NCBI GenBank assembly: GCA_001821395.1
Contig: MHLM01000006.1
Location: 1-64,000 of the forward strand
Origin: Candidatus Lloydbacteria bacterium RIFCSPHIGHO2_02_FULL_50_18
Lineage (GTDB): Bacteria; Patescibacteriota; Minisyncoccia; Phycocordibacterales; UBA6899
DNA length: 64,000 nt
Direction: 5' to 3'
Part shown: positions 1,702-54,864 of the stretch, piece by piece
Layout of the letters: every line of letters begins with the position of its first letter
Position numbering within the stretch: the first letter of the stretch is position 1
The notes under the pieces: generated by a model
The model's database searches: none
What the model was told of the DNA's origin: nothing
Seen by the model: only the letters and a program-made list of their open reading frames with translations
Program-made: the position numbers and the translations under genes

Positions 1702-1837
1702 GTTCTTATCGATTAACTAATAATATCCTTATTTTACAAGAGTACATTTCGATCACGGGGGGATAGATTTCGGTGCGATTCCTCCGGGGACTGCTCCTCG
1801 GTCGTGAACTAAAATAGTACGACCCTCGAGGACATTG

Positions 1838-3811: not shown

Positions 3812-5131
3812 ATGCGGTCACACGATCGCATTATTCACTCATCTTTACCCTCTATGGCAAAGACGCAACTCACTTGGCAGACGGAGAAACGCAAGGTCGA
3901 TGACCTCGTTCCCCACGCCAAGAACCCTCGCACCCTCTCTCCAAAGCAGAAGGAGGAAATCGAAGCGAGCATTACCAAGTTTAACCTCGTCGAGATCCCC
4001 GCGATCAACACCGACAATCTCGTCCTCGCCGGACACGTTCGCCTGAAGACCATGCAGGCACTCGGGCGCGGGCAGGAACTGATCGACGTGCGCGTCCCAA
4101 ATCGCACGCTCACTGCAAAGGAGTGCGAAGAGTACCTTCTCCGTTCCAATAAGAACACCGGCTCATGGGATTATGAGCTACTCAGAGCATTCGATACCGA
4201 GTTTTTGCTCGACATCGGATTCGACGATACCGACCTTTCGAATATTTGGGACGATGTACTCTCACTCGAAGACGACGACTTCAATGAGACGAAAGAGCTC
4301 GAGAAAGCCAAGAAAACCACCATCAAGGTCGGTGACTGCTTTCAGCTCGGTGATCACTCCCTCATATGCGGTGACAGCACCGACGAAGCGGTCGTGAAAG
4401 ACTTGGTCGGAGGCTTCCGCATCGACACCATCTATTCGGATAGCCCGTACAACATCGACCTGAACTATGACAAGGGCGTAGGCAACAAGCAGTCATACGG
4501 TGGAGATGTCGACGACAACAAGTCTGATGCGGAGTTCAGGGCATTCACCGTGAAGACCCTTGCGAACGGACTCTCGGTCATCAAGAAGGACGCACATGTC
4601 TTCTGGTGGTGCGACCAGCGTTATGTCGGGATGATCCAATCGGTGTATCAGGAGGTTGGGATCAAGTACAAGCGCACCTGCTTGTGGATCAAGAACGGAT
4701 TTTCGCCGACACCCAAGGTCGCCTTCAACAAGTGCTACGAGCCTTGTATCTATGGCACTATCGGCAAGCCCTATCTCTCCGACAAACAGCGCAAACTCCA
4801 CGAGATACTCAACACCGATGTTGGCACGGGAAACGCCACGGTAGATGACATCAGTGACATGATCGACATATGGCTTGCAAAGCGTGTGAGTAGCGACGAG
4901 TACGAGCACCCCACCCAGAAGCCACTCACGCTCCACGAACGCCCACTCCTGCGCTGCACGAAGATTGGCGATAATGTCCTCGACCTCTTCGGGGGAAGTG
5001 GTTCGACGCTTCTCGCTTGTGAACAACTGGGGCGCAAGGCCTTCCTCGTCGAACTGAGCCCCATCTTTTGTCAGCTCATCATCAACCGCTATGAAAAATT
5101 CACCGGAGACAAAGCAATCAAGCTCAATTAA
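3812..5131 (+). CDS. ParB-like nuclease domain fused to a beta-class DNA (N4-C/N6-A) methyltransferase
   Basis: N-terminal ParB-like motif region; motif IV DSPYN then motif I DLFGGSGST (order IV then I is beta class). Confidence 0.8.
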   Translation: MRSHDRIIHSSLPSMAKTQLTWQTEKRKVDDLVPHAKNPRTLSPKQKEEIEASITKFNLVEIPAINTDNLVLAGHVRLKTMQALGRGQELIDVRVPNRTLTAKECEEYLLRSNKNTGSWDYELLRAFDTEFLLDIGFDDTDLSNIWDDVLSLEDDDFNETKELEKAKKTTIKVGDCFQLGDHSLICGDSTDEAVVKDLVGGFRIDTIYSDSPYNIDLNYDKGVGNKQSYGGDVDDNKSDAEFRAFTVKTLANGLSVIKKDAHVFWWCDQRYVGMIQSVYQEVGIKYKRTCLWIKNGFSPTPKVAFNKCYEPCIYGTIGKPYLSDKQRKLHEILNTDVGTGNATVDDISDMIDIWLAKRVSSDEYEHPTQKPLTLHERPLLRCTKIGDNVLDLFGGSGSTLLACEQLGRKAFLVELSPIFCQLIINRYEKFTGDKAIKLN

Positions 5132-5888
5132 GACGGGAGATGTGATCGCGCTCGGTGATCACATCCTGATCTGTGGAGATGCGACAAAGGTTGACCTCGC
5201 GAGCATTGTGAAAGGCAGAGTCCACCTTGTCCTCACCGACCCGCCGTATGCGATCGACTACGTGGCGAGCAAGCGCAACATCGTCGGCGTGTCGAAGGAC
5301 AAGGATATTGCGAACGATGGCTTCATGAGTGATGCAGAGTATGTGACATTCACGAAGGGGTGGCTCACGCCAGTACTCCCCCTCCTTGAGAAGAAGAACA
5401 GCATCTACGTCTTCAACTCGGACAAGATGATCTTCGCTCTGAGGCAGGCATTCGTGGAGCTCAGGCTCAAGGTGGCACAGCTCATCATTTGGGTGAAGGA
5501 TCGCGCCATCGTCGGGAGACTCGACTACCTCCCACAACATGAGCTCATCCTCTATGGATGGCACGGGACCCACGACTTCAAGCGCGGGAAGGACAAGTCA
5601 GTCATGTTCGTGCCGAAGCCATCACGCAGTACGCTTCACCCCACCATGAAGCCGATCCCTCTCCTCCGCAAACTCATCTTGAACAGTACCGATGTGGGTG
5701 ACGTGGTCTATGACCCGTTCGGAGGGAGCGGATCGACGCTCATCGCCTGCGAACACACGAAGCGCAGATGCGTCATGGTGGAGATGGATCCCGAGTACTG
5801 CGCAACGATCGTTCGTCGCTACGAGCAGTTGATTAACCGCGAAGACAATGGCAAGCAAGCACCCCACAGTACTGGAAAAGCGAATTGA
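5091..5888 (+). CDS. Beta-class DNA methyltransferase (DPPY)
   Basis: LTDPPYAIDY (motif IV) then DPFGGSGSTLIA (motif I); overlaps the upstream MTase by 41 nt. Confidence 0.8.
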   Translation: MKNSPETKQSSSIKTGDVIALGDHILICGDATKVDLASIVKGRVHLVLTDPPYAIDYVASKRNIVGVSKDKDIANDGFMSDAEYVTFTKGWLTPVLPLLEKKNSIYVFNSDKMIFALRQAFVELRLKVAQLIIWVKDRAIVGRLDYLPQHELILYGWHGTHDFKRGKDKSVMFVPKPSRSTLHPTMKPIPLLRKLILNSTDVGDVVYDPFGGSGSTLIACEHTKRRCVMVEMDPEYCATIVRRYEQLINREDNGKQAPHSTGKAN

Positions 5889-6246
5889 TGCCCAAAAGGA
5901 AAAGGTTATCGAGTTCCTTGCTGAATCCGGCAACATCAGCTTCGCATGCAAGCGAGGGGGTATCAGTCGCGAGACATACTACCGATGGAGGGACGATGCG
6001 AGGTTTGCGGCAAAGGCTGACAGTGCCATTCAGTCGGGCAAGACCTTCGTGAACGACCTTGCCCACACCCAGCTCATCCGCAAGATCCAAGAGGGTGACA
6101 TGCAAGCGATACGCTTCCATCTCGTGAACTGCCATGACGACTATCGCCCGAAGCTGCCCGAGCGCATCGAGCGCGTGGTGCCGATCACTGCGGTGGAGAT
6201 CATTCAGGCGAGCCATGACTGCAAGAAAGAGGTTAACGCCGAGTAG
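5848..6246 (+). CDS. Phage terminase small subunit-like HTH protein (P27 family-like)
   Basis: GNISFACKRGGISRETYYRWRDDARF..AIRFHLVN pattern typical of TerS-type HTH proteins; no large terminase nearby. Confidence 0.55.
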   Translation: MASKHPTVLEKRIDAQKEKVIEFLAESGNISFACKRGGISRETYYRWRDDARFAAKADSAIQSGKTFVNDLAHTQLIRKIQEGDMQAIRFHLVNCHDDYRPKLPERIERVVPITAVEIIQASHDCKKEVNAE

Positions 6247-6982
6247 TCGCCTCCATAATCTTCTCCGCGATCTGTTTCCAATCATTATTCGATACTCCGT
6301 GTGCCACCGAGTGAGGGACGACTGCATATACTGTGTGGTCGTCTTTTGCTACATAGAGTTTCTTGGGAATTGTTTCGTGAAATGGTGCATCAGTGATCTC
6401 TCTCCAGTCTTCGAGATAGACCATGGAGTAACAGATGACGACTTTGGGTTTGTGTTTTTGGATGAGTTCACGGAGACGCTTAATGCGTTCGGGTTTGTAC
6501 ATCTTGAGGTACTCACGGCGAGATGACAGCCCCTCAATTCCCGATGATGCATACACCCAATCTTTTGCATGGAGCGAACGAGCAGGGAGCGGCATCAATT
6601 CGAGTAGCGCGTGATCATTGTTCTTTCTGCCAAAATGATTGATCTGGTATTCGCGGATATCTTCAAGTGATGGTTCTTTGCTTGTTTGGAAATAGCGTAG
6701 CAGATAGATCAGCTTGCGATAGGTTGCTTGTGTCGGCGCACCGTCCGTAAACCACGCCATGTGATCCGCATCACCGCCCATATCGTCGCAGATATCAAAG
6801 ACTTCTCCGTTTGATGTTGCTTCGAAACGTTTGATGAGTTTGGGTATTGATCCGTCGCATCCTTCTTCCATTCCTACAAACCACACATCACTATCTAATT
6901 CTCCATAACCCCAGAAATGTGCAATGCGTTCGTTGATCAGATGCCGAAAATTCCCTTCCGAAGAAAGTGTCGAGTTGTTCAT
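6233..6982 (-). CDS. Hypothetical protein
   Basis: 249-aa ORF; CTCTAGCGGG motif 10-20 nt upstream of the start. Confidence 0.45.
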   Translation of the reverse strand: MNNSTLSSEGNFRHLINERIAHFWGYGELDSDVWFVGMEEGCDGSIPKLIKRFEATSNGEVFDICDDMGGDADHMAWFTDGAPTQATYRKLIYLLRYFQTSKEPSLEDIREYQINHFGRKNNDHALLELMPLPARSLHAKDWVYASSGIEGLSSRREYLKMYKPERIKRLRELIQKHKPKVVICYSMVYLEDWREITDAPFHETIPKKLYVAKDDHTVYAVVPHSVAHGVSNNDWKQIAEKIMEATTRR

Positions 6983-7014
6983 ATATTGCTCTAGCGGGTT
7001 GGCAAATATGCTCG

Positions 7015-7581
7015 CTACTCTTTATCGGTTGTTCCATCCTGATAGATGATCGTACCAGGAAGCCAGACGTACTTGAGATTTTCAAGATCGGTGTTGTTCA
7101 ACTTGATATCGCTATCAATGAACTGGTTGTATTTGATGCTTGCAACCCACGCTTTGTCGGTGTGTGCAGCAATGGGAGTATCGTCGTATGCAATGCTCAC
7201 GCGTTTGATCTCGTTCTTGAAGATGTCGTAGAAGATGATCATTCCCTCTACGCCGCGAACATCTTTTGCGGTTTTGTTGGAGAACTTAAAGCCAAGGGTG
7301 ATGTAACTTTGAAATTGACCATCCTCGGCATTTGCGGGGTCAAACTTTTTCGAGGTGACCGTGAGGTCAACCTTTTCACGAAGTTTGTTCGGGGTGGCGA
7401 TATCCGCAACGGGAGCTTTCTCCTCGATGGTGGTTTTTCCATCCATCATGCCCGTGATTCCTTTTAATCCTTCAGATAATGCATTGCGTATTTGATACGC
7501 TTTGTACTCCATACCGGAGAAAAATCCTATGATAAAAATAAGTGCCGCAAGAGCGGTCTTTACGATGTGCTGCTTGTTCAT
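7015..7581 (-). CDS. Membrane-anchored or secreted hypothetical protein
   Basis: 188 aa with an N-terminal hydrophobic helix; structured leader upstream. Confidence 0.5.
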   Translation of the reverse strand: MNKQHIVKTALAALIFIIGFFSGMEYKAYQIRNALSEGLKGITGMMDGKTTIEEKAPVADIATPNKLREKVDLTVTSKKFDPANAEDGQFQSYITLGFKFSNKTAKDVRGVEGMIIFYDIFKNEIKRVSIAYDDTPIAAHTDKAWVASIKYNQFIDSDIKLNNTDLENLKYVWLPGTIIYQDGTTDKE

Positions 7582-7740
7582 AATTTGCTCTAGCGGGGTT
7601 TAAAGCGGGGAGGTAAGCAAAAGGCTCCCAGCCATTGCGATGGTGCCTTTCGGCGACCACCCGTATCCCTTTCGAGACACGACCCGCTAGAGCGACTCTG
7701 ACTGGGAGTCTTTTATTCTCTAGCGGGGATTTTCGACCAT
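7582..7740 (-). promoter_or_regulatory. Structured leader or small RNA with three copies of the CTCTAGCGGG motif able to form alternative pairings, plus nested hairpins
   Basis: CCCCGCUAGAG (from 7718-7728) and CUCUAGCGGG (from 7683-7692) form a 10-bp stem; a third copy (7588-7598) lies 9 nt before the AUG of 7015..7581; GAAA and CGCA tetraloop hairpins between them. Confidence 0.4.
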
Positions 7741-7809
7741 ATCCTAAAGCGTGAGCCGTAGGGGTTAGGTCTCCTATTAAGTTGTACTTGGTATTGTACG
7801 GCATATAAA

Positions 7810-7847
7810 GAAACCGCTCAACCTTAGCTTAGATCAAGCGGTTTGCG
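7810..7847 (-). terminator. Hairpin downstream of the RM operon (AAACCGCT..AGCGGTTT), a possible terminator
   Basis: 8-bp stem with an 18-nt loop; followed on the minus strand by a weak CTTTATAT tract. Confidence 0.3.
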
Positions 7848-7868
7848 AAGCAGAGTTACCAACAGCAA

Positions 7869-9023
7869 TTAATCAACCAGTTGGTAAAAACAGTTAGTTA
7901 ATTGGCGAATTAATTCTGGATAAATAGCGTCAAACGAGGAACCTTCTGGAATACCCAGCCGCTGACATACTGATACTAAGGCTTCAAATTTTTTCTCGTC
8001 ACTTACGGCATGGAGAAGATTTACCCGAAGATCGTACAGAACAAATAATGGGGAAACTATTTTGTGGACGTCCTTTTTAGGAAACTTCAGGCTAAACAGT
8101 AGTTCAATCCTCTTTAGTCCACCCAAATTTTTGGGGTCACCACCCAGCTTAATTATGATTGCCCCAAGATTGCTGACATCCAAAGATTCAATATTTATCT
8201 TATTCAAAAGATCCACGATATCCTTTTGCTCCTTTTCCGTATGAAGGACCGGTGGATTAAGTTTGGAGATGGATTGAATGGTCTCGTTTGTTAAATGACT
8301 CACCTCAAGTCCAAACTCTTTTGTACAAAACTCTAGGAATACAGACCGAGCATTAATTAACTTATCTTCAGGTGTATAGTCAGTAAATTTAACTTCAATC
8401 TGGCCATCATAGAACTCACTTCCAATGTCGTGGTCAGACTCAATATTTTCTGAACGCAGATAGTATTGCTCAGACTCATCTAGCGTGGCCATGTCACCAA
8501 GCCACATTATTACTTTTCCAGACTTGTTTACACCAAAAGATATATCGAAATCCTTTCCGCTGTAAATACTCCCATAGGTTTTTGAAGCAAATCGCACTCT
8601 ATAATCGGAATGGTTCTGGAATTTGAGCAGCACAGATTTTTTAAAAAATACAGGAGTTAAAAACCCAGAATTGTGATCTCTTTGCAGTCCAGGTATATAA
8701 TAGTAATCATCCGCATCATAAATAAATTTAACTTTTGTAAATCCAAGGTCCTCAACTATCTTCCTTCGATTACTGAAAATAGTATCCCGGTGTTCCTCAA
8801 GCGCCTTTTGGTGTAAATGAATGATCACAAATCTACTGTGATCAGGAAAATATTTTAAATCACATGATCCACAAAATAGATACGGTAGGGCTTGAATTGA
8901 TATATTTATTCCTGACACCAGTTCGTTGAAATCGAAATATTTCAAAACCATCGACTGTCCGCAATTTTCACAATATATACGCTGAACTTTTCCATCTTCG
9001 GGAAAGATATCCTTTATATCCAT
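7869..9023 (-). CDS. Uncharacterised zinc-ribbon protein that is the last gene of the type I RM operon
   Basis: 384 aa; N-terminal CENCG..CGSCD; 3-bp gap after the hsdR stop; no Walker motif, so not PrrC-like. Confidence 0.55.
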   Translation of the reverse strand: MDIKDIFPEDGKVQRIYCENCGQSMVLKYFDFNELVSGINISIQALPYLFCGSCDLKYFPDHSRFVIIHLHQKALEEHRDTIFSNRRKIVEDLGFTKVKFIYDADDYYYIPGLQRDHNSGFLTPVFFKKSVLLKFQNHSDYRVRFASKTYGSIYSGKDFDISFGVNKSGKVIMWLGDMATLDESEQYYLRSENIESDHDIGSEFYDGQIEVKFTDYTPEDKLINARSVFLEFCTKEFGLEVSHLTNETIQSISKLNPPVLHTEKEQKDIVDLLNKINIESLDVSNLGAIIIKLGGDPKNLGGLKRIELLFSLKFPKKDVHKIVSPLFVLYDLRVNLLHAVSDEKKFEALVSVCQRLGIPEGSSFDAIYPELIRQLTNCFYQLVD

Positions 9024-9026
9024 AGA

Positions 9027-11996
9027 CTAGTAATACTGCCTTATGTACTCATATGCTTTATCAAACAAAATATTATCTTTATGTAAGGCGTATTTATAGA
9101 GCGTCTTGCGAAGTGCCTGCTTGATCTCTCTCTCACCTGCTGCGGTACTCTGCCAACCCGGGAATCGTACAACTTTAACGATTCCATCTATGTCATTCAC
9201 TATGCGTTCTACTATTACAGGAGTTTGGTCAGTTTTGAGTTCAAGAAAAAGTTCGGAAAGAGCGGTCTTGGCACCATCTCTGCGTGTTTCTGTCTCAACT
9301 TCTTTTTCAGCCTGGACAGTTTCCTTCGCCAATTGAATAAGGTCTTTCAAAAACTCAATACTGTTAATTAGGCCCCGCTCAGCCTTATCCCTTAATTCCT
9401 CCAAGCGTTGACCAAGTGCGACAAAACGGGGGTCACCTTTGTGGCGAAGAAATCTCTTTGTAATCTCGATTTCAATTAGCTTAATTTTTTTCTTGTCAGT
9501 AGTGTGCATCAAATCCTCGATAACCTCTGCATCCAGAACTATTTCTTCGAGATGATCGTCAACTCCTTGGACGTGAATGTGTTCATGAATGAGTTTCATC
9601 GTCTGAGCACCAAGTGCATGCCAGAGAAGCCGACCTGTTTCTCCAGAGGGAGGGCGCACGGATTCATACACCTGCGATAACCATGTGTATTCATTCTGAA
9701 ATTTATTCAATATCGGATCTGGAGACAATGCTTCCCATATTTTACTTAAAACCGAGTAGTCCGCAGCATAGGCATCTCGTTTCTCGTCGGTATTTAAACA
9801 ATCCTGAGCTAGCAAAAGGCCTTCATAGCCCACCACAGATCGGTCGATGCCATGAAAATGACCGAGGCAAGTATTAACTGCTCCCTGAAGCTCATTTTTT
9901 AACTCGTTGAGATTTGTGATTACATACCGAACACTGGCATCGTCAAACTCGAGAGCTTTTGCAACATCATCGAATACGCCAAAATAATCCACGACTAATC
10001 CGTATGCCTTATCTTTATATACACGATTAGTGCGGCAAATGGCCTGTAGAAGGTTGTGATCTTTTAGCGCCTTGTCGAGATACATACACTGGAGAATCGG
10101 CGCATCAAACCCTGTAAGTAATTTAGCAGTAACGATCAAAAACTTAAGAGGATGCTCAGGATCCCGGAAGTTGTCGAGAAGTTTTTCCTGGTCTTCCTTG
10201 CTCATCTCATACTTCTGCTTAAGCATGGTGTCTGTTTCGCCCTTGCCGCCCGTTGAGATGACCACCGCACTTGCTTCCGGAGGTAAAATCTTATCAAGTT
10301 CTTGCTTATAGAGGTCACAGGCGTATCTGTCAGGAGTTACGATTTGGGCCTTAAAGCCCTGCGAATCAATTTTTTCTTGAAAATGTTTTACAACATCTTT
10401 AACGATTGTCTCAATGCGAGCAGGAGATTTAAGAAAAGCAGACATCTTTGCCGCTTCCTTTACCAAGCTCGTTCGATCGTCTTCTGAAAGATGTTCTGTC
10501 ATCTGGTCGAATTCAGCATCAATCAAGTCTCTGTCAACGTGAACATTCAATAGGCGCGGTTCGAAGTGCAGAGGGAGTGTTGCCTTGTCGCGAATTGAAT
10601 CCTGAAAAGTATATCGGGTCATGTAACCCTGATCATCTTCTTCGGCACCAAATGCCCAGAACGTGTTTCTTTCTGTTTTGTTGATAGGGGTACCAGTCAG
10701 ACCAAATAGGAATGCGTTCGGCAGGGCATCGCGCATTTTACGACCAAGATCACCCTCTTGTGTGCGATGAGCCTCATCTACCAAGACAATGATGTTTTCT
10801 CGTTCATTAAGCACGCCTCCAGCCTCAGCAAATTTAAAAATGGTAGTTATAATAATCTTTCTCGTATCCTTGTTTAAGAGATCGTGGAGTTCTGATCGTT
10901 TATCTGTTGACACAACATTTGGTATCTCTGTTGCGTTGAAAGTTCCTGTAATTTGAGTATCCAAATCGACTCGATCAACCACAACGAGAACGGTGGGGCT
11001 TTTTAATTCTTGAGATCGACGGAGCTTCTGCGCTGCAAATACCATCAATAGTGACTTACCAGATCCTTGAAAATGCCAAATGAGTCCCTTCTTCGGCCTA
11101 CCCGCCTTTACGCGCTCAATGATCAGGTTTGCGCCCTCCATCTGTTGGTAGCGGGCTATTATTTTTATCCGCTGCTTTCGCTTGTCTGTCGCAAAGAGCG
11201 TGAAGTTTTGAAGCAAGTCCAAAACAACTCCTGGATCAAGTGCTCCGGAAATCGCTTGTTTAATTTCAGAAAGACCCGCAATGGCACCTTTTGAGTCACG
11301 CCAAGGCCCCCACAACTCGAGCGGCATACGAATTGAGCCGTAACGGAATGTTTTACCCTCGGTTGCAAACGAAAACACATTTGGAACAAATAGTTGCGGG
11401 ATTGTATTTTCGTAATCGTCGTGAATATCGATCGCGCCGTCGAGCCAAGAAATAGAGGGGCGCACGGGTGTCTTAAATTCTCCCACGACGAGCGGAATTC
11501 CATTAACCAACATCACCAAATCGGGACGTTTCTCAGCCTTGCCTTGAACGGTGTACTGATTTGTGACAATGTATGTATTTTTCCCCAAGCTATCGAAATC
11601 AATAAAACTGATCGAAACGTGCTCATTATTTTCGCCAAACGGCATTGTCTTGTCACCACGGAGCCACGCAGAAAATTCTTCGTTCGCTCTAACGAGACCG
11701 GATGTTCCGACCGAGAGAAAGATCGCTCGTATTTTATATAAAACTTCGTCGGCTTTATTGGGGTCAGCTGCAATATCCGGATTAAGACGAATCAGAGCGT
11801 CTTTTAATAGCGACTCAACGATTGCATCTTTGGCTTCGCGCTTGAGTTGAGAGGAGGGAACGTATTGCCACTTCAAACCAGGGTGAAAAGCACTATCTGG
11901 GGCAAGATAGTTTGAATCCTGCATAAGCTCCGGGCTTATGCCGGTAAGTTCGTTCAAGATAAAGTGTTCGGTTGTATTTATTTCGTTAAATTTCAT
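9027..11996 (-). CDS. hsdR: Type I restriction enzyme R subunit
   Basis: 989 aa; SF2 helicase motif I FQGSGKS and DEAH box VLVDEAHRTQ; position after hsdS. Confidence 0.9.
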   Translation of the reverse strand: MKFNEINTTEHFILNELTGISPELMQDSNYLAPDSAFHPGLKWQYVPSSQLKREAKDAIVESLLKDALIRLNPDIAADPNKADEVLYKIRAIFLSVGTSGLVRANEEFSAWLRGDKTMPFGENNEHVSISFIDFDSLGKNTYIVTNQYTVQGKAEKRPDLVMLVNGIPLVVGEFKTPVRPSISWLDGAIDIHDDYENTIPQLFVPNVFSFATEGKTFRYGSIRMPLELWGPWRDSKGAIAGLSEIKQAISGALDPGVVLDLLQNFTLFATDKRKQRIKIIARYQQMEGANLIIERVKAGRPKKGLIWHFQGSGKSLLMVFAAQKLRRSQELKSPTVLVVVDRVDLDTQITGTFNATEIPNVVSTDKRSELHDLLNKDTRKIIITTIFKFAEAGGVLNERENIIVLVDEAHRTQEGDLGRKMRDALPNAFLFGLTGTPINKTERNTFWAFGAEEDDQGYMTRYTFQDSIRDKATLPLHFEPRLLNVHVDRDLIDAEFDQMTEHLSEDDRTSLVKEAAKMSAFLKSPARIETIVKDVVKHFQEKIDSQGFKAQIVTPDRYACDLYKQELDKILPPEASAVVISTGGKGETDTMLKQKYEMSKEDQEKLLDNFRDPEHPLKFLIVTAKLLTGFDAPILQCMYLDKALKDHNLLQAICRTNRVYKDKAYGLVVDYFGVFDDVAKALEFDDASVRYVITNLNELKNELQGAVNTCLGHFHGIDRSVVGYEGLLLAQDCLNTDEKRDAYAADYSVLSKIWEALSPDPILNKFQNEYTWLSQVYESVRPPSGETGRLLWHALGAQTMKLIHEHIHVQGVDDHLEEIVLDAEVIEDLMHTTDKKKIKLIEIEITKRFLRHKGDPRFVALGQRLEELRDKAERGLINSIEFLKDLIQLAKETVQAEKEVETETRRDGAKTALSELFLELKTDQTPVIVERIVNDIDGIVKVVRFPGWQSTAAGEREIKQALRKTLYKYALHKDNILFDKAYEYIRQYY

Positions 11997-14612: not shown

Positions 14613-14613
14613 A

Positions 14614-16101: not shown

Positions 16102-16331
16102 TTTGGTGACGATGTCAGCTTTTCAACGGTAGTCCCCAGAGCTGTGGCAATTTTTACCATCGTTGCCACTCGGGGATCAGGAGTGAGTCCGCTCTCAATC
16201 TTCGCAATGGTGTGATAATCAAGGCCGGTTTTCGTAACCAGCTTGCTCTTAGACAATCGCTTTTCATTTCTAATTTTTCTCAAGTTTCCTGCGATATTTG
16301 AGAATTTTTTTGGGTGAGATTTCTTTTTCAT
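16098..16331 (-). CDS. XRE-family HTH protein; candidate controller (C) protein of the RM operon
   Basis: 77 aa HTH_3-like (LSKSKLVTKTGLDYHTIAKIESG); 4-bp overlap with hsdM. Confidence 0.7.
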   Translation of the reverse strand: MKKKSHPKKFSNIAGNLRKIRNEKRLSKSKLVTKTGLDYHTIAKIESGLTPDPRVATMVKIATALGTTVEKLTSSPK

Positions 16332-16488
16332 ACGACAACCTTGCTTAGCATAATTATACCAAATTTATTGAGTTTTTGCTGCAATAAAAAGTGGATAAAA
16401 ATAGGGCTATTTGAGGGATGGTTACCAACAGCTTACCAACTGACCCTCCCTGGACTCCCTGGGAGGGTTGCGTCATCAATTGGTGTGT

Positions 16489-17844
16489 ATGAAAAATACA
16501 AACCCGCTAGAGGGCTCTGACGAGCCGAAAATTAAGTACTGTTTATACGCTAGAAAATCGAGCGAATCGGACGAGCAGCAAGCCCTTTCGATCGACTCCC
16601 AAGCCAAGGAGATGCTCCAGCTGGCGCAACGAGAGGGGCTTGATGTGGTCGACATCAAGCGCGAGTCGCACTCCGCAAAAAGCACCGGGCAACGCCCGGT
16701 CTTCAATGAGCTGATCAGCGACCTCAAGGAGGGCAAGTTTAATGCCATTCTCGCATGGCATCCGGATCGCTTAAGCAGAAATGCAGGCGACCTCGGTGCT
16801 ATCGTCGACCTGATGGACGAGCACCGACTTATCGAAGTGAGAACCTTTGGTCAAAAGTTTACAAATAGTCCAAGCGAGAAGTTTCTACTCATGATTCTAT
16901 GCTCGCAAGCAAAGCTTGAGAACGACAACAAGGGCGTGAACGTGAAGCGGGGGCTACGAGCAAAAGTTGAGATGGGACTATGGCCATGCGTTGCACCGAC
17001 CGGATACATCAACGACCGCATGCCTGGGCGTGCAGGATATGTGCTCGTCGACCCGGTGCGTGCTCCGATTATCAAGCAAATATTTGAAAAGGTCGGCAAT
17101 GACCGATGGAGCGCTAGGACGGTTTATAAATGGATGGTCAAAGAAGGAAAGTTCAATAGCGTGAGAAAAGGAAATAAGGCACTCACCCTGAGCACAATCT
17201 ATCGACTTCTGCATCAGCCTTTCTATTCGGGAACATTCGAGTACCCCACCGGGAGCGGTAACTGGTACAAAGGTCAACATGAGCCACTCGTTTCCAAGGA
17301 ACTCTTCGAGAAGGTGCAGCAAAAAATAGCGGAGGAGTTGAAGTCAAAGAAACAATATCAAGAATTCACCTTCACGAACCTTATGCTCTGCGGATACTGT
17401 GGGTCAGGTATTACCGCACAATCAAAAGACAAAAATCTCAAAGATGGGAGCGTCAAAAGTTACACCTACTACAACTGCACGCACAACAAGGATCACTTCT
17501 GCAAAAACCCGTTCATTCGCGAAGAAGAACTTCTCAAACAGATCGATGAGATCTTCGACAAGATCGATATCGACGAACTTGGAACACGGCATATCATTGA
17601 AAGAGAGGTTGCGCGATACAACAACATTCGGGCAAAACTCCTCGGCGCAAAAGAAAATGACAAAGCACTCGACGTCGACGTGCGAAACTATGCCAAGTAC
17701 ATGCTCAAAGAAGGCACGATGCTCGAAAAACGCGAACTCCTAGGGTGCCTAAAAAATAGAATTATTCTGAAGGATAAAACGATAACGCTTGAAAAAAGTT
17801 TGCAAATTAATGACTTAACGCCACAAACACAGATAGCACGCTGA
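16489..17844 (+). CDS. Large serine recombinase (resolvase domain, recombinase domain and zinc ribbon)
   Basis: YARKSSESDEQQALSIDSQ catalytic Ser region; C-terminal CGYCGS..YYNCTH; an alternative TTG start exists at 16468. Confidence 0.85.
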   Translation: MKNTNPLEGSDEPKIKYCLYARKSSESDEQQALSIDSQAKEMLQLAQREGLDVVDIKRESHSAKSTGQRPVFNELISDLKEGKFNAILAWHPDRLSRNAGDLGAIVDLMDEHRLIEVRTFGQKFTNSPSEKFLLMILCSQAKLENDNKGVNVKRGLRAKVEMGLWPCVAPTGYINDRMPGRAGYVLVDPVRAPIIKQIFEKVGNDRWSARTVYKWMVKEGKFNSVRKGNKALTLSTIYRLLHQPFYSGTFEYPTGSGNWYKGQHEPLVSKELFEKVQQKIAEELKSKKQYQEFTFTNLMLCGYCGSGITAQSKDKNLKDGSVKSYTYYNCTHNKDHFCKNPFIREEELLKQIDEIFDKIDIDELGTRHIIEREVARYNNIRAKLLGAKENDKALDVDVRNYAKYMLKEGTMLEKRELLGCLKNRIILKDKTITLEKSLQINDLTPQTQIAR

Positions 17845-18172: not shown

Positions 18173-18173
18173 A

Positions 18174-36279: not shown

Positions 36280-36825
36280 CTATTTGATCGTTTTTTTGAA
36301 TGTTACCGTCACGGTAAAATCGATCGGTGACTTCTTCGTAATGAAACTGCTTCCGAATTTTATCGATTCCACCATTGATGTCTTGAACGCCTTCTGCAGT
36401 GCAAGTAATTCTTCACGAGTTATTGCAGTTCCCGAAAATTGGATGGCGATGATCCCGCCCATTTCAGCATACGCAACAGAAGAGAGCTCTATCCCGCGAG
36501 GTTTATTTTGCAGCAACTCCCCAATCAGACGTGAGGGCGGTATCCCGAGTATGTCATCGGACGATTGAAGCAACGCAAGCTCCTTTTTGATCGTCGTTAA
36601 TTGCGAAGGAATTTGCTCATTCACTTCAGGAGAAAGCGTCTTCTTCTGTTCCAATTCATCTGCAAGAGTTTTTGTCATCGAATTCATAATAAAATATGAC
36701 GGCAAAAAGAGGATGACCGAGGAGAGCTCAAGGACAAAGAGCGCGCACAGGACCACGATGACCAGACGAAGTCGGTATTCCTTATGGATCGTTTTTTTCG
36801 CGATAGGAGGGAGGAGGTTGATCAT
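36280..36825 (-). CDS. pilN: Type IV pilus assembly protein PilN-like
   Basis: 181 aa; N-terminal TM; adjacent to pilM; 4-bp overlap. Confidence 0.6.
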   Translation of the reverse strand: MINLLPPIAKKTIHKEYRLRLVIVVLCALFVLELSSVILFLPSYFIMNSMTKTLADELEQKKTLSPEVNEQIPSQLTTIKKELALLQSSDDILGIPPSRLIGELLQNKPRGIELSSVAYAEMGGIIAIQFSGTAITREELLALQKAFKTSMVESIKFGSSFITKKSPIDFTVTVTFKKTIK

Positions 36826-37916
36826 AGGTGGGAAAAGGTATTACGGAGAGCCAGTCCGATCGCCGCTGAATACCCATGGGACTCACGCATCGTAAGCGGC
36901 GGCACATATGTCTCGAACGAACAAACGTTGACCCAAGAATTTGCGATCGTGACCCTTACGGCTAATTCCATTCCAAGAAACTCGGTGATACCGCGCAAAT
37001 TCGCCCCTCCTCCGGTGATAAATACGCATTCAATGTTCCCTCCGACCTTTTCACCATGATGCGTCTGCCAATATGAATAGTGCCTCATCAATCGCGTGCG
37101 AAGGTCGGACACCACGGGTAGCATGGCATGATAGACCGCATCCGATTTCTCTCCCCCGACCAGACCATGCAGGACCTTTAATGCTTCAGCCTCATCATGG
37201 GTGACATTAAGTGCGCGCTCAATAGCCTGCGTCAGATAATGACCACCAATATCGAGTGATGCGGAGAACTGCACGACCCCGTTCGCAGCAACAAAAACAT
37301 TCGTTTCCATTTTTCCGATATCCAACACGAGAAAGGTCCCATTGTCCCCATGCGGAATAAGTGCGCGCGCCATTGCCTGCGATTCAAATTCAAACGCCTT
37401 CGGAGTGATCCCCGTCCCTGAAAAAATATCGAGATATTCTTCAACGACGACACGGGGCAGCACGGACACCACAACGTCCATATTTTCCTGACGCTTTGTC
37501 GCCGACTCCCCGACAACAACATAATCAAATACGGCATCAACGCCTGAAATTGGTACGTGTTCTTCAAGTCGTAGCTCGATCGTATCATGAAGGTCTCCAG
37601 GTGAAACGCGGGGAATACGCATATTAGCCAGATATGCCTGCTCCTCGGGAAGCGAAATATTCGCAAAAGAAAGATCGTGCTCCTTTGCAAGTGAGGCGAT
37701 CGCATCCTGTAGTTTTTTCTTGTCACGAACATGTCCCTCGGAAATGATCCCGAGAGGAAAATTCCTTGTGGCATGTCGCACGACCTCAAGGCAACCGTTC
37801 CGATTCTTGTCGAGTTCGATGAACCGAAGCGCATCAGCGGAAATATCAAAGCCGACCGCAGGCATGGAGAGGAATTTGGGTGCAGTAAGAAAAGGCATCA
37901 CCCATATTATACGCAA
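36822..37916 (-). CDS. pilM: Type IV pilus assembly protein PilM (actin-like ATPase fold)
   Basis: 364 aa; VGFDISADALRFIEL N-terminal motif. Confidence 0.8.
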   Translation of the reverse strand: MRIIWVMPFLTAPKFLSMPAVGFDISADALRFIELDKNRNGCLEVVRHATRNFPLGIISEGHVRDKKKLQDAIASLAKEHDLSFANISLPEEQAYLANMRIPRVSPGDLHDTIELRLEEHVPISGVDAVFDYVVVGESATKRQENMDVVVSVLPRVVVEEYLDIFSGTGITPKAFEFESQAMARALIPHGDNGTFLVLDIGKMETNVFVAANGVVQFSASLDIGGHYLTQAIERALNVTHDEAEALKVLHGLVGGEKSDAVYHAMLPVVSDLRTRLMRHYSYWQTHHGEKVGGNIECVFITGGGANLRGITEFLGMELAVRVTIANSWVNVCSFETYVPPLTMRESHGYSAAIGLALRNTFSHL

Positions 37917-51439: not shown

Positions 51440-53113
51440 TTAACGGGGTGTCCCGCCCACCGAAGGAAGCATTCGCGCAAGCCGCGAACCGTCTTCCTCC
51501 TGCTCCATCGCCTCGATCGAGGCTTTCTTCTGTCGGTAATATGCTATTCCTTTTCGGACCCCAATGATCGCAAGCACAACAAATATGAGGTAGAGGATCC
51601 AGCCAACAAACGAACTGGGGAGCATACCGTTTCCCGCTCCCGCAGTGTTTGCTCTTGCTCCCGTACTTCCTTTTGCGCCGGCTAGGGCGGTGCCGCCCGA
51701 CGATACGACACGCGTCGCACCCATCTGCTGAAATTCCAATCGTGCACGCGCATCAGGAAAACCTTTTGCACTTCCCGTTGTCATACCAAGAATGCTCAAC
51801 ACTCTCGTTCCACCTTTTTCAAGACGCCCAATCGGAAGAACGTACGTACGCTCTCCTCCTGATCCATCTTCAAGCAAGAGCTCATTGTTCGTATTATCAC
51901 CGATATACACAACGTCAAACGGAATGATGATCTTCAATTTCGCACCGGTTGCAACGGATGATTCCCCGTATTGATAGGTGATACGATACTCCACCGGAGT
52001 ATGGATCGAGACATTGGTGGGTCCGATCTTTTCTATCTGCACCGCGGTCTTCTTATCGCTCCCCATAAGTGCATTCCAAAATGCGCCGAGTGGTCCGCCT
52101 GCCGTGGCGACACTCGCGACTTGCGCGCTGGGATCATTGACCATGCTGGTATTCACGGAGTCTGCGGTGTCAGATTGAGGAGTGGCCGTTGTTGTTTTTT
52201 TCCGAAAAAGTGAAGCGAGGAGATCGCCGGCAAAGTTCTGCGAAGTAATCCCGCCCGCGGCCACTGATGACCCCTGATTCGTTGCAAGATAGACCCCGCT
52301 TGACGACGTCGTGCGGGCAACACCGTCGCCACCCACTGTCGCAGGCGGAATTGCTTGAGAAACTTGCGCTTCGGGTGGCGGAGGAGGAGTGCCTGCAGTA
52401 TTCAATATGCGGATTGCACCATAGGTACGCCCTGCGGAATTTTCCGCAACGATCCGATAAAAATATGTCGTTCCGGGAGTCAGGCTCGAGAGAGCGCTCT
52501 CAAAGAAATTTGCGTTCGACGAGACGCCCACTTTAGACGTTTGGCCTTCAAGGCGCTGGGACGTACCCCAATCAAACCATGCCTTTGTCGTAGTGTCCCC
52601 ATGCGGGCTCACGTACCCCCGAAGCGTCACCGTCGTTTCACCGACGGCGCTTGGAGAGTCCGTCTCTGCAATCACCAGCGGCGGGACACCAATGACGAGT
52701 ACCTTTGTGGTGAAATACAATGTTTGACCGACATCCTTACCGCGTCCGTTCTCTACGATCTGACGGTAAAAATATTGTGTACTCGGCGCGAGCCCAACGA
52801 TGTCCGCACTTGTGTCAGTAAGCGTGTTTCCATACCAACTCGACACCGACTGATGCGTGGTCTCGTAGACGACCCCGGGTCGGCCGGAAATTCCCCACTC
52901 AAACCAGGCATAGGCATCGGGCATTTCACTAGGATTCGCCTGACCATTCAGCTTTGCGCTCTTTTCCGTGATGAATAATGCCTGCTTTGAGATCGCGATC
53001 GGTGCGGCCTGATATGCAAAGACCGTCACCGGGGAGATGATGAGCAGTAGCGGCATCACAAAAAGGGAGACCGATAAATAATTCGATGTCTTTTTCATTC
53101 GCCCATTATACAC
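51440..53113 (-). CDS. Surface-anchored protein with Fn3-like repeats, a Pro-rich linker and a C-terminal TM anchor
   Basis: Signal peptide; two repeated ..WFEWG..YFYR.. Fn3-like modules; PPPPP linker; C-terminal hydrophobic helix then a cytoplasmic tail. Confidence 0.55.
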   Translation of the reverse strand: MYNGRMKKTSNYLSVSLFVMPLLLIISPVTVFAYQAAPIAISKQALFITEKSAKLNGQANPSEMPDAYAWFEWGISGRPGVVYETTHQSVSSWYGNTLTDTSADIVGLAPSTQYFYRQIVENGRGKDVGQTLYFTTKVLVIGVPPLVIAETDSPSAVGETTVTLRGYVSPHGDTTTKAWFDWGTSQRLEGQTSKVGVSSNANFFESALSSLTPGTTYFYRIVAENSAGRTYGAIRILNTAGTPPPPPEAQVSQAIPPATVGGDGVARTTSSSGVYLATNQGSSVAAGGITSQNFAGDLLASLFRKKTTTATPQSDTADSVNTSMVNDPSAQVASVATAGGPLGAFWNALMGSDKKTAVQIEKIGPTNVSIHTPVEYRITYQYGESSVATGAKLKIIIPFDVVYIGDNTNNELLLEDGSGGERTYVLPIGRLEKGGTRVLSILGMTTGSAKGFPDARARLEFQQMGATRVVSSGGTALAGAKGSTGARANTAGAGNGMLPSSFVGWILYLIFVVLAIIGVRKGIAYYRQKKASIEAMEQEEDGSRLARMLPSVGGTPR

Positions 53114-53184: not shown

Positions 53185-54864
53185 ATGCCCCATTTTCAAG
53201 ACGAAAAACAAACAAAGGTGTTCAGCGATATGCGCGAAAAGGAAGCAGAAGACCTTGCGCAGATCCTTGCAGCACGATATGAGCTTCCCTACGTTGACCT
53301 TTCACGGGTCATCATCAACAACAACGCCGCACGTCTTATACCGGAAGAAACGGCACGCAAGGCAAAGCTCATCGTGTACTCGGTCGACATGAAAAATGTC
53401 AGTATTGCGATACAGACTCCGCACATAGAGGGCGTCAACCAGGTCGTCACAGAGCTCACTCGACAAGGTTATAATCCTACCATATTGATCGCATCGGAAT
53501 ACGGGATCGCTCGCGCATGGGAGGTCTACAAAGAGGTCTCGCACGCGATCGCCTCGACCGCAGGAGTGATGTCAGTATCGAACGAAACAATGCAGAAATA
53601 TGTCTCAATGATCAAGACCATCGCGGACGTGAAGGCGGTCGTTGATGAAGCGATCGGCTCGGGTGATGTGCACTCACTTTCTACGGTCGTGGAGATCATC
53701 TTGGGCGGTGCAGTTGCGACAAGCGTCTCCGATGTGCATATCGAACCGGAGAAGGAAACGGTCCGCGTGCGTTATCGTCTCGATGGAGTCCTCCAGGATG
53801 TCGTTGAGATCACACACGTCGGCTATAAAAAAGTACTCGCGCGCATTAAGCTGCTGGCGGGAATGAAGCTCAATGTCACCCACGAAGCCCAAGACGGACG
53901 GTTCACGATCAAGATCAACGACATCGATGTTGAGGTGCGTACCTCGGTACTCCCGGCCGCATATGCGGAATCGGTAGTGATGCGTATTTTGAATCCGAAA
54001 TCCATTTCCGTTCCGCTTGAGGAACTCGGTATGGATGAATACTTTTATAAGATCATGACGGAGCAGATTGGAAAACCGAACGGACTCATTCTTACGACCG
54101 GGCCGACCGGATCAGGAAAAACAACGACACTCTACGCCTGTCTAAAAAAATTACGTAGCCCGCAAATAAAGATCATCACCATTGAGGACCCTATCGAATA
54201 CCACCTTGACGGCATCTCGCAAACACAGATCGATCACGAAAAAGGTTACGACTTCTCTCATGGGCTCCGCGCAGCGGTGCGCCAAGACCCCGATGTCATC
54301 ATGGTCGGTGAAATTCGAGACGAAGAAACAGCTTCCGTTGCGATCGACTCTGCGCTCACCGGTCACTTGGTCTTTTCAACACTCCATACCAATAATGCCG
54401 CCGGCGCTATTCCTCGACTCATCGATATCGGTGTGAATCCGAAGATCATCAGTTCCGCGCTCAACATCGCAATCGGTCAACGACTCGTGCGCAGACTCTG
54501 CACGCAGTGCAAAGAAGAATATGTTCCCGTAGGGAAAGAGATAGAGCTGCTCATGCGCGAATTACCGGAGATAAAAAAATATCGTCCGAACATAGAATTT
54601 CCCGAACACCTTTGGCGACCCGCCGGATGTGAAAAATGTTCGTTCACCGGTTATAAAGGCCGCATCTCTATTTACGAGGGTATCCTCATGGATAGAAACA
54701 TTGAGGAGATCCTTCGAGAGAACCCGAGCGAGCGCGAGATCAAAGAAGCCTCAAAATCGCAAGGGCTCCTGGATATGCGCCAAGACGGGATCATCAAGTG
54801 CATCAAAGGAATAACTTCAATCGCCGAAATCGAGCGGTCTGTCGGACTCGAAGAATCACGCTAA
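53185..54864 (+). CDS. pilB: Type II secretion / type IV pilus assembly ATPase (GspE/PilB family)
   Basis: LILTTGPTGSGKTTTLYA Walker A and a C-terminal tetracysteine motif. Confidence 0.85.
   Translation: MPHFQDEKQTKVFSDMREKEAEDLAQILAARYELPYVDLSRVIINNNAARLIPEETARKAKLIVYSVDMKNVSIAIQTPHIEGVNQVVTELTRQGYNPTILIASEYGIARAWEVYKEVSHAIASTAGVMSVSNETMQKYVSMIKTIADVKAVVDEAIGSGDVHSLSTVVEIILGGAVATSVSDVHIEPEKETVRVRYRLDGVLQDVVEITHVGYKKVLARIKLLAGMKLNVTHEAQDGRFTIKINDIDVEVRTSVLPAAYAESVVMRILNPKSISVPLEELGMDEYFYKIMTEQIGKPNGLILTTGPTGSGKTTTLYACLKKLRSPQIKIITIEDPIEYHLDGISQTQIDHEKGYDFSHGLRAAVRQDPDVIMVGEIRDEETASVAIDSALTGHLVFSTLHTNNAAGAIPRLIDIGVNPKIISSALNIAIGQRLVRRLCTQCKEEYVPVGKEIELLMRELPEIKKYRPNIEFPEHLWRPAGCEKCSFTGYKGRISIYEGILMDRNIEEILRENPSEREIKEASKSQGLLDMRQDGIIKCIKGITSIAEIERSVGLEESR

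Follow-up and report, generated by a model that had tools for sequence, protein, structure and literature searches.

The LOOT RNA of a Patescibacteria genomic island carries a hairpin arm that recurs before downstream start codons, suggesting a pairing switch for translation

The minus-strand element at 7642-7771 of the window (the whole 64-kb stretch of DNA analysed here) is a LOOT RNA, a member of an RNA family without an assigned function (Rfam RF03000), and the 5' arm of its second hairpin is repeated just before the start codons of the two genes that follow it. The LOOT motif was described by Weinberg et al. in 2017 (PMC5737381) and is termed a 'metagenomic-based RNA' in PMC7779021. It has been an orphan since 2017: its structure is well supported, and the literature searched gives no organism, gene association or mechanism for it. 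Searches on LOOT function, RF03000 and CPR prophage recombinases returned database mentions only, with no function. An earlier note on this DNA had taken the element for an unnamed motif family and missed the known RNA. The cmscan match scores 71.4 bits (gathering score 46.4; E=7e-13) and covers model positions 1-121 of 121; a permissive Rfam scan of positions 6000-8500 (E≤1) gave LOOT as its sole match. The features discussed below are collected in Table 1.

Table 1. Features of the LOOT locus and of the recombinase gene in the window (H1-H4, hairpins 1 to 4).
Feature	Position	Strand	Basis or remark
Upstream-operon terminator (7844..7811), then promoter-like TTGAGC-17-TACAAT (7821..7793), before LOOT	7793..7844	-	sequence prediction
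LOOT RNA (Rfam RF03000), H1-H4	7642..7771	-	cmscan
H2 5' basal arm CCCCGCUAGAG, internal mimic of the start-site copies	7718..7728	-	copy search, model alignment, fold
Segment a, AAAAGACUCCC, H2 5' apical half with its A-run	7704..7714	-	complementary to segment c
Apical GACUC/GAGUC hairpin of H2	7694..7710	-	model alignment, folds
H2 3' basal arm GCUCUAGCGGG, proposed anti-start-site sequence	7683..7693	-	complement of every other copy
Segment c, GGGAGCCUUUU, after H4, outside the Rfam model	7619..7629	-	pairs with segment a
Fifth hairpin GGCUGGGAG ... CUCCCCGCU with a U-rich loop, after LOOT and ahead of the first arm copy	7604..7633	-	folds, comparison
Arm copy d1 CCCGCUAGAGC, 5 nt before ATG of gene 7015..7581; 11 bp with 3' arm	7587..7597	-	copy search, folds
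188-aa membrane-anchored protein, no family match	7015..7581	-	homologues directly after LOOT in loci L069 and L095
Arm copy d2 CCCGCUAGAGC, 5 nt before ATG of gene 6233..6982	6988..6998	-	copy search
249-aa protein, no family match	6233..6982	-	at least 7 loci with homologues directly after LOOT
Arm copy followed by CUCUGAC, recombinase mRNA +15..+33	16503..16521	+	complementary to 3' part of H2 loop and 3' arm
Large serine recombinase; Resolvase, Recombinase and Zn_ribbon_recom domains	16489..17844	+	domain search

Folded alone, the window RNA adopts the same four hairpins as the Rfam model, with a minimum energy of -54.2 kcal/mol (z=-4.7). The model alignment shows the conserved CCUAA/AUGG internal loop, the A-rich linker and GNRA-capped hairpins 3 and 4, and neither in its hairpins nor in its conserved nucleotides does the RNA core differ from the family. 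What is new for the family is its assignment to the CPR, a 3' extension made up of segment c and the fifth hairpin, the arm copies at start sites and the link to serine recombinases. Two tetraloop hairpins had been proposed from the sequence: the GAAA loops are real and conserved, belonging to LOOT hairpins 3 and 4, while the CGCA loop caps a 4-bp stem in the conserved linker that is not kept as a hairpin in other LOOT loci. Folding also bore out the minus-strand pairing of CCCCGCUAGAG (7718-7728) with CUCUAGCGGG (7683-7692) around a GACUC/GAGUC hairpin, which is hairpin 2 of LOOT. Across loci, the basal nine pairs of this hairpin are 99.4% Watson-Crick, and G.U pairs make up 0.75% of its basal stem compared with 17% of hairpin 3. 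A plain RNA switch does not predict this near-lack of G.U pairs, which may reflect an additional constraint, perhaps one acting on the DNA. A stem that is both strictly Watson-Crick and hypervariable is not accounted for by ordinary RNA structure.

The Rfam model is incomplete in that it lacks a universal long-range pairing between segments a and c. Of the 11 positions in the window, 10 pair and one is an A.C mismatch. The pairing is found in nearly all LOOT loci, segment c lying 19-25 nt after hairpin 3, and the duplex has a median energy of -13.5 kcal/mol against -8.6 kcal/mol for partners swapped between loci (P=2e-61). It would form either a pseudoknot or an alternative, terminator-like helix, and segment c is followed by a U-run.

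The sequence CTCTAGCGGG has exactly five copies in the window, at 6989-6998(+), 7588-7597(+), 7683-7692(-), 7718-7727(+) and 16503-16512(-), where 0.05 are expected by chance; none of 100 shuffled sequences reached five. This upholds the five copies reported earlier, two of which, given as 7588..7598 and 7718..7728, are 11-mer readings of the second and fourth sites. The basal stem of hairpin 2 is built from two copies that are inverted with respect to each other. The remaining three repeat the 5' arm of that hairpin in mRNA sense, and all are complementary to the 3' arm. Two of these end 5 nt before the ATGs (7581 and 6982) of the two genes next after LOOT, in agreement with the earlier observation of a copy at the same position before both genes, and both are part of a 24-nt repeat that reaches into the third codon. 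A search of the 64 kb for more targets with up to two mismatches gave 12 sites beyond the five, against about 10 expected, which is chance level, and no right-hand att remnant of hairpin 2 was found elsewhere in the window.

The two genes behind LOOT appear to be co-transcribed with it: a terminator of the upstream operon and a promoter-like sequence are predicted before LOOT, and the stretch from LOOT to gene 7015..7581 has no predicted terminator. The A/T-rich spacer could instead house a promoter of the cargo gene's own, in which case the copy would be partly absent from that mRNA. About 90 nt upstream of the window LOOT are conserved with loci L076 and L113. At L076 a homologue of the 249-aa protein follows LOOT directly, without the 188-aa gene between them, which identifies the 188-aa gene as an insertion in the window; relative to L076, this extra gene is flanked by the 24-nt repeat containing the arm copy. 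Each of the 249-aa homologues behind LOOT (at least 7 loci) has an arm copy matching its own locus. Pfam, PHROGs and PADLOC gave nothing for the 188-, 249- and 384-aa proteins. The absence of a Shine-Dalgarno sequence before both genes was considered as a sign of special initiation and dropped as uninformative, since many genes of the genome lack one: a strong Shine-Dalgarno precedes only 26% of the long ORFs here, and several have TATAAT directly before the ATG.

To place the locus in its family, LOOT loci were collected by pattern search, which gave 247 matches, 230 of them with LOOT-like helices; the comparisons used approximately 226-239 loci. When 18 pattern-found loci were tested against the Rfam cut-off, 14 passed. 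In the collections searched, the named genomes with LOOT are almost all Patescibacteria/CPR, and among the matches listed there is one match per contig stretch and one contig per genome. Several metagenome assemblies in JGI, ENA and Logan also contain the window locus, and the groundwater sites that yielded the contig include those of JGI 3300002502 and the SRR2090153/155 series. Against viral contigs, two narrow patterns gave chance matches only, the sole Rfam match there being 6S RNA, and the working LOOT pattern matched six contigs, of which only two had LOOT-like helices. The first downstream ORF is co-oriented with LOOT in 182 of 192 loci (95%). These genes are functionally unrelated, including DNA methyltransferases (at least 9 of 44), nucleases and small membrane proteins, and most belong to no family. 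LOOT thus heads highly variable cargo genes in recombinase-bearing islands, the cargo often being restriction-modification or small membrane proteins. A large serine recombinase is the commonest LOOT neighbour elsewhere, lying within 4 kb of LOOT in 81 of 239 loci (about a third), mostly in divergent orientation.

Start-site copies of the hairpin 2 arm are present in about 27-30% of the approximately 230 LOOT loci compared, and an exact 10-mer copy lies downstream on the same strand in 35 of 226. As MAFFT alignment shifts arm and copy by 1-2 columns between rows, tests in which arms were permuted between loci were used instead. The longest exact match of arm to downstream sequence is at least 9 nt in 27% of loci, compared with 0.4% when the arms are swapped. 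Among 60 distinct copy-bearing loci there are 36 different cores, each matching its own LOOT, at a median of 64 nt after hairpin 3, and in 53 of the 60 an ATG lies within -3 to +8 nt of the copy. Gene families found behind one LOOT turn up behind others with different copies, each locally matched. Comparison of the loci upholds the core of the earlier proposal: where a downstream copy is present, it changes together with the hairpin arms. Of all LOOT segments, the 3' arm alone shows complementarity to the downstream leader that is specific to its locus (-17.9 kcal/mol against -7.4 kcal/mol in swapped controls, P=1e-26), and in loci whose hairpin 2 departs from Watson-Crick pairing the copy tracks the 3'-arm complement in preference to the 5' arm (12:5:4). 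In loci without a copy, comparison of every LOOT segment with the downstream leader revealed no comparable signal, the best being the 3' apical half of hairpin 2 (marginal, P=0.011). Elsewhere in the loci, exact arm copies occur only at L076, L113 and L201 (all three on the opposite strand) and at L202 (far upstream), together with four shuffled-word matches. Two downstream copies are found in the window alone among some 238 loci.

When the window RNA is folded with its leader, the minimum-energy structure pairs GCUCUAGCGGG with the copy before gene 7015..7581, which is the alternative pairing that the earlier note had foreseen. Blocking either partner of the 3' arm shifts the fold energy by only 6 kcal/mol in the window, and over 61 loci the two alternative folds differ by a mean of 1.2 kcal/mol. 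On balance we think it probable, though well short of certain, that LOOT is a bistable anti-start-site switch that acts in cis and possibly also in trans on the recombinase. The 3' arm would be the anti-start-site sequence. In one state it would be held by the 5' arm within hairpin 2, leaving the start sites free; in the other it would pair with a start-site copy and occlude that start site, the targets in cis being genes 7015..7581 and 6233..6982. The direction of the effect is presumably repression. Approximately 70% of LOOT loci have no start-site copy, so LOOT must have some function beyond such a switch.

As a diffusible RNA, LOOT could also act in trans on the recombinase mRNA. The recombinase ATG is at 16489 and the motif occupies +15 to +24 of the ORF; with CTCTGAC (16515-16521) included, the match to 7683-7702 amounts to 10 + 7 nt with one indel, so that the 17-18/20 complementarity claimed before was a fair description. 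Copies at the recombinase start are also found at L015 and L113, with weaker ones at L207 and L051, giving three clear and two weaker matches among 68 recombinase genes. L076 keeps a site of this type with no recombinase gene (no ORF) behind it. RNAduplex, applied to the whole LOOT and the recombinase start region, gave an over-extended and uninformative duplex. These matches suggest that antisense action in trans on the recombinase is plausible but rare. The seed in the 3' arm is locked in a perfect 9-10-bp stem, which is unfavourable for pairing in trans, and the rarity of recombinase-site copies is a point against the pairing switch. Of the three mechanisms first suggested for the element, a riboswitch-like cis switch is retained as a pairing switch and not as a metabolite riboswitch, the controlled genes being functionally unrelated; a trans-acting antisense RNA is kept as plausible, though rare; and a shared protein operator is disfavoured by the hypervariability of the arms.

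Several other readings of these data were weighed. LOOT may be a sensor-type leader whose conserved core (the H1 internal loop, the A-rich linker, H3/H4 and the a-c pairing) binds a ligand or protein, with hairpin 2 as a switching helix whose 3' strand is shared with an expression platform at the start site. The multi-helix fold with its conserved nucleotides, the nearly invariable position directly upstream of a co-oriented gene, the presence of two alternative pairings that co-vary (one between the 3' arm and the start-site copy, the other between a and c) and the near-equal energy of the two states would all suit such a leader. We nevertheless regard it as unlikely, given that the downstream genes (DNA methyltransferases, nucleases, small membrane proteins and many unknowns) share no function, that the gene context points to no ligand and that the platform-like copy is present in only about 30% of loci; it also overlaps with the pairing switch, from which it differs only in what triggers the switch. 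The protein operator, a site shared by a DNA-binding protein such as the island's XRE repressor or HTH protein, can draw on the HTH genes nearby and on inverted-repeat arms in perfect Watson-Crick register, a strand-symmetric repeat. It is extremely improbable: the arms vary freely and all copies change together, so that specificity would have to re-evolve each time, near-identical neighbouring proteins sit beside arms that differ, and the arms lie in an RNA with classic covariation, including the G.U pairs of H3.

A different proposal is that the arms of hairpin 2 and their copies are recombination or targeting sites of a mobile element, used by the neighbouring serine recombinase directly or under the guidance of LOOT, with cargo inserted cassette-like at the copy. 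The frequency of mostly divergent recombinase genes within 4 kb is compatible with this, as are the arm copy at the 5' end of the recombinase gene, the extra window gene flanked by a copy-bearing repeat, and the strictly Watson-Crick basal stem, which a role for both DNA strands would predict. Two 98%-identical recombinases, moreover, adjoin arms that differ at 6 of 10 positions and have different LOOT/cargo modules. Against this, the copy at 53 of the 60 loci has mRNA sense and precedes an ATG by 0-5 nt, which fits translation and not an arbitrary DNA target. The L053/L137 homology breakpoint has no arm copy, and outside start regions the loci have only the isolated ones at L076, L201 and L202; the restriction of two downstream copies to the window means that cassette arrays are not the rule; the recombinases have an ordinary, protein-guided domain set; and the arms are not palindromic about a central dinucleotide. 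We consider DNA sites of this kind improbable. The strand symmetry of the hairpin 2 arms is the one feature that keeps a DNA-level reading alive. Alternatively, the second copy and the recombinase copy may be leftovers of start-region duplication at gene insertion, with no regulatory role. The 24-nt repeat does take in the ATG and two codons, and the L076 arrangement identifies the 188-aa gene as inserted, but duplication explains neither how unrelated genomes come to have 36 different, locally matched cores at one position nor why the copy tracks the 3'-arm complement, and we judge it very improbable.

The pairing switch that we favour has partial parallels in known systems. The c4 antisense RNA of phages P1 and P7 and the CI RNA of P4 are structured immunity RNAs that lie upstream of their target and are co-oriented with it; they pair with the ribosome-binding region of the downstream gene through short complementary segments that differ between related elements. 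LOOT is likewise upstream, co-oriented and complementary to the ribosome-binding region of the next gene, but has no homology to these RNAs, LOOT being alone in the permissive scan described above. Whereas c4 shows its pairing segments in loops and targets an antirepressor, in LOOT the segment is buried in a stem whose other strand competes for it, and the targets are diverse cargo genes, those in the window having no recognisable function. As in leaders that sequester translation start sites and in riboswitch platforms, a helix strand can pair alternatively with the start region, giving exclusive states of similar energy; the alternative pairing co-varies and is present in about 30% of LOOT members. 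Unlike riboswitch platforms, LOOT has neither a coherent gene function nor a known ligand, and has a platform in only that share of loci. A metabolite riboswitch fits poorly, the downstream genes being functionally unrelated where genes of one pathway would be expected. RNA-OUT of IS10 is read from the other strand of the DNA that encodes its target, the transposase mRNA, and is complementary to the first codons of that mRNA. LOOT resembles the RNA-OUT/RNA-IN pair in that the element encodes an RNA whose sequence is complementary to the first few codons of its recombinase mRNA; it differs in that the RNA gene is 9 kb away, the match is 17/20 and such matches are seen in few loci. With the IS110 bridge RNA and the integron attI/attC sites, LOOT shares a structured non-coding element by a recombinase gene, short variable sequences and variable cargo. 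An IS110-type bridge RNA was rejected, the recombinase being a large serine enzyme (Resolvase/Recombinase/Zn-ribbon) and not DEDD, with no arm copies at the element ends. An integron attI/attC platform was also rejected, given a serine and not a tyrosine recombinase and the lack of cassette arrays, with two downstream copies in the window only (about 238 loci).

The window and some 230 further loci give LOOT a host group (Patescibacteria/CPR), a gene context and a candidate mechanism. In about a third of loci (27-30%), a sequence within hairpin 2 changes in step with the start site of the following gene, and these start-site copies give an orphan RNA a testable role as a pairing switch for translation. 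We also raise, as a quite improbable extension, that hairpin 2 serves a CPR mobile element as a programmable nucleic-acid address, by which the conserved neighbouring large serine recombinase or another element protein would be guided in cargo insertion or in silencing incoming relatives; its two arms, hypervariable and strictly Watson-Crick, would correspond to the two strands of a short site in DNA or RNA. Such an address would explain the scarcity of G.U pairs, the occurrence of near-identical recombinases by unrelated arms and the turnover of cargo exactly at the copy, and, if true, would amount to RNA-guided recombination or to an RNA-based specificity of immunity. CPR bacteria are uncultured and poorly understood, and a family-wide regulatory RNA of their mobile elements would therefore be useful to know.

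The locus is a genuine LOOT RNA (Rfam RF03000) with copies of its hairpin 2 arm on the starts of downstream genes. The Rfam scan gave LOOT as the sole non-tRNA family in the window: a full-length minus-strand match at 7642-7771 whose 71.4 bits exceed the gathering score of 46.4. The repeated motif pair forms the basal stem of LOOT hairpin 2, and the GAAA-capped hairpins that an earlier note had read as structured RNA correspond to LOOT hairpins 3 and 4. When only these 130 nt are folded, precisely the four LOOT hairpins form, at -54.2 kcal/mol (z = -4.7). The family goes back to the Weinberg/Breaker 2017 survey (PMC5737381). The Rfam 14 paper (PMC7779021) labels it a 'metagenomic-based RNA', another paper mentions its many 'cross-covariations' (PMC7657543), and it gained two base pairs in Rfam 15 (PMC11701678). 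A literature search found no function, host or gene association for it.

The five copies of CTCTAGCGGG listed in the earlier note are exact and are all that the 64-kb window holds, and, as the note had stated, the arms enclose GACUC/GAGUC on the minus strand; after dinucleotide-preserving shuffling the mean count was 0.05, with five copies in none of 100 shuffles. The two start-site copies, before genes 7015..7581 (188 aa) and 6233..6982 (249 aa), are part of a 24-nt repeat, 92% identical, that extends into the third codon. The copy in the large serine recombinase gene (16489..17844) is followed by GG-CUCUGAC, matching the CGA-CUCUGAC that adjoins the 3' arm in the hairpin. Read in the mRNA sense, the three outlying copies are thus all complementary to one strand, the 3' arm.

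Motif copies, hairpin 2 arms and neighbouring signals in the window
Feature	Position	Strand or reading	Remark
CTCTAGCGGG copy	6989-6998	+	exact match
CTCTAGCGGG copy	7588-7597	+	exact match
CTCTAGCGGG copy	7683-7692	-	exact match
CTCTAGCGGG copy	7718-7727	+	exact match
CTCTAGCGGG copy	16503-16512	-	exact match
Hairpin 2 5' arm CCCCGCUAGAG	7718-7728	minus-strand reading	arm enclosing GACUC/GAGUC
Hairpin 2 3' arm GCUCUAGCGGG	7683-7693	minus-strand reading	arm enclosing GACUC/GAGUC
Start-site copy CCCGCUAGAGC	7587-7597	sense of gene 7015..7581	ends 5 nt before ATG
Start-site copy CCCGCUAGAGC	6988-6998	sense of gene 6233..6982	ends 5 nt before ATG
Recombinase copy CCCGCUAGAG	from 16503	recombinase mRNA sense	+15 from ATG at 16489
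Predicted terminator	7844..7811		before LOOT

A search pattern of conserved LOOT positions, checked on the window, matched at least 119 stretches in one-genome-per-species contigs and at least 119 in metagenome contigs, with one match each. The Rfam cut-off was passed by 14 of 18 loci tested, the failures being from Prochlorococcus, Mucilaginibacter, Calothrix and one MAG. Among the matches listed, the stems of hairpins 2 and 3 were complementary in 230 of 247, and the named genomes were nearly all Patescibacteria/CPR (Saccharibacteria, Paceibacterota, Microgenomates, Gracilibacteria and others), with a few MAGs carrying a Gammaproteobacteria label. IMG/VR held just two true LOOTs. The window's own locus is also present in several JGI, ENA and Logan metagenome assemblies, and its LOOT, with ~90 nt upstream, is near-identical to that of a Lloydbacteria MAG contig (L076).

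For each locus the 3' arm was extracted and its complement searched, with shuffled words and arms swapped between loci as controls. In 35 loci the complement recurred as an exact 10-mer 50-90 nt downstream on LOOT's own strand, compared with 4 for shuffled words; pairing at 10 or more of 11 positions occurred in 25% of loci (6% with swapped arms), and in 27% (0.4%) the longest exact match reached 9 nt or more. The duplex energy between 3' arm and leader was -17.9 kcal/mol versus -7.4 kcal/mol in the swapped control (P = 1e-26), and no other LOOT segment tested against the leader showed locus-specific complementarity. Sixty distinct loci with this third copy held 36 different cores, at a median of 64 nt past hairpin 3; an ATG lay within -3 to +8 nt of the core in 53, and 48 of those ATGs opened an ORF of at least 50 codons. 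Covariation among homologues, named earlier as a check, is present: the third copy is a LOOT family feature, and in alignments it changes together with both arms (for example CCGCTACAGTG, CCGCTAAAGTG, CCCGCTACAGG, CTCGCTACAA and CGCGACGAAC). At non-Watson-Crick positions of hairpin 2 the copy agrees with the 3'-arm complement in 12 cases, the 5' arm in 5 and neither in 4, which favours selection for 3'-arm pairing over simple copying of the 5' arm.

When the window's RNA was folded with its leader, the 3' arm was paired, in the minimum-energy state, with the copy preceding gene 7015..7581, and the apical hairpin was retained; this and the locus-specific complementarity support the alternative pairing proposed earlier for that gene. 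Of 61 loci, 38 had hairpin 2 in the minimum-energy fold, 16 the long-range pairing and 7 another structure, and the two forced states differed on average by 1.2 kcal/mol; the window's clade favoured the long-range state, by 4-7 kcal/mol. In 182 of 192 loci LOOT and the first downstream ORF share a strand, and this ORF begins a median of 72-76 nt past hairpin 3, with or without a copy. A promoter-like site also precedes LOOT in the window, and terminator prediction gave nothing between LOOT and gene 7015..7581.

The genes that immediately follow the copy vary widely: at least 9 of 44 encode DNA methyltransferases, others encode nucleases (Mrr-like, HNH or VRR-NUC) or Pmp3-like small membrane proteins, and the majority belong to no Pfam family. 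Of the riboswitch-like cis switch suggested earlier, the alternative pairing at the start site is supported, whereas a metabolite riboswitch is unlikely because the downstream genes are so diverse. The window's 249-aa and 188-aa families recur behind LOOT elsewhere, each with its own genome's arm; relative to L076, the window carries the 188-aa gene as an insertion that separates LOOT from the 249-aa gene, together with a duplicated start region.

When the ORFs lying up to 4 kb from LOOT were compared all against all, the commonest neighbour was a large serine recombinase (81 of the 239 loci listed, mostly upstream and divergent), followed by DNA methyltransferases, a terminase-small-like HTH protein and a terminase-large-like protein. 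All of these also occur in the window, where LOOT is separated from the recombinase by a type I restriction-modification block; exact direct 12-mers, GTTACCAACAGC, bracket the block at 7855-7866 and 16421-16432. In L076, GTTRCCAACA stands at both ends of a different cargo; such bracketing repeats may be the scar of cargo exchange. The stretch 9027-16331 (minus strand) holds an XRE-type HTH gene, two HsdM paralogues, HsdS and HsdR, and like the gene of a 384-aa protein without a family (7869-9023, minus strand), which comes next, these lie upstream of LOOT and co-oriented. Plus-strand genes at 3812-6246 code for a DNA methyltransferase with a ParB domain, another methyltransferase and a terminase-small-like HTH protein; in 20-30 loci this trio recurs close to LOOT, in many cases along with a 492-aa terminase-large-like protein and without other phage structural genes. 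Among the loci listed, a reverse-transcriptase family occurs within 4 kb of LOOT in 10, and an 84-aa protein upstream within 4 kb in 15.

The complementarity to the recombinase start, noted earlier, extends beyond the window but is rare: of 68 recombinase genes, those of the window, L015 and L113 have an arm copy there and those of L207 and L051 a weaker one, which is above the swapped control. L076 carries at ~1810-1830 (minus strand) a 21-of-22-nt copy of the hairpin 2 3' half; the ~100 nt in front of it are homologous to the sequence that leads up to the recombinase ATG in the window, yet no recombinase ORF follows. A shared protein operator, also suggested earlier, is unlikely because the arms are hypervariable. 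In L053 and L137 the recombinases are 98% identical and the adjoining LOOT arms differ at 6 of 10 positions, so that the arms are not the recombinase's protein-recognised site. Homology between these loci stops ~130 nt upstream of LOOT, and their LOOTs, arms and downstream genes are unrelated, indicating that the LOOT/cargo module has been exchanged relative to the recombinase module.

Two features are not explained by the switch model. Across 212 distinct sequences, 99.4% of the cells for the nine basal pairs of hairpin 2 are Watson-Crick, and G.U pairs make up 0.5-1.5% of this stem, with or without a third copy and despite its hypervariable sequence, compared with 17% in hairpin 3 and 11% in hairpin 1 of the same RNAs. 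Given these strictly Watson-Crick arms and the link to the recombinase, a DNA-level or guide role for the arms is possible. The other feature is a complementarity, on the minus strand, of 7704-7714 (hairpin 2 5' apical half and A-run) to 7619-7629, a segment right after hairpin 4 and followed by a U-rich run. It recurs in nearly all loci (-13.5 versus -8.6 kcal/mol with swapped partners, P = 2e-61), with the segment 19-25 nt past hairpin 3 and the pairing independent of the third copy. Since this pairing, absent from the Rfam model, crosses the hairpin 2 basal stem, it would form a pseudoknot or an alternative, terminator-like helix.

Elsewhere in the window, directly beyond the recombinase, a ThiF/E1-like 463-aa protein with PADLOC E1-E2 matches lies between two small ORFs (17807-19924, minus strand), in what looks like a ubiquitin-like conjugation type defence module. 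An ARAGORN permuted tmRNA call (38328-38948, minus strand) overlaps tRNA-Ser at 38854-38942; Rfam found no tmRNA there, and the call is probably false. TATAAT-like boxes directly before ATG (for example genes 36822..37898, 51440..53098 and 53185..54864) and a strong Shine-Dalgarno match in just 26% of long ORFs suggest that many mRNAs of the source genome may be leaderless or Shine-Dalgarno-independent.

Functionally, the proposed LOOT switch comes closest to two kinds of element: the c4/CI immunity RNAs of phages P1/P7 and P4, to which the Rfam scan found no homology, and sequestering leaders. In the best-supported mechanism, the start-site copies compete with the 5' arm for pairing to the 3' arm. 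On the expression side, we infer that this competition would act as a translational switch in cis on genes 7015..7581 and 6233..6982, and the 3' arm might also exert antisense control of the recombinase in trans.
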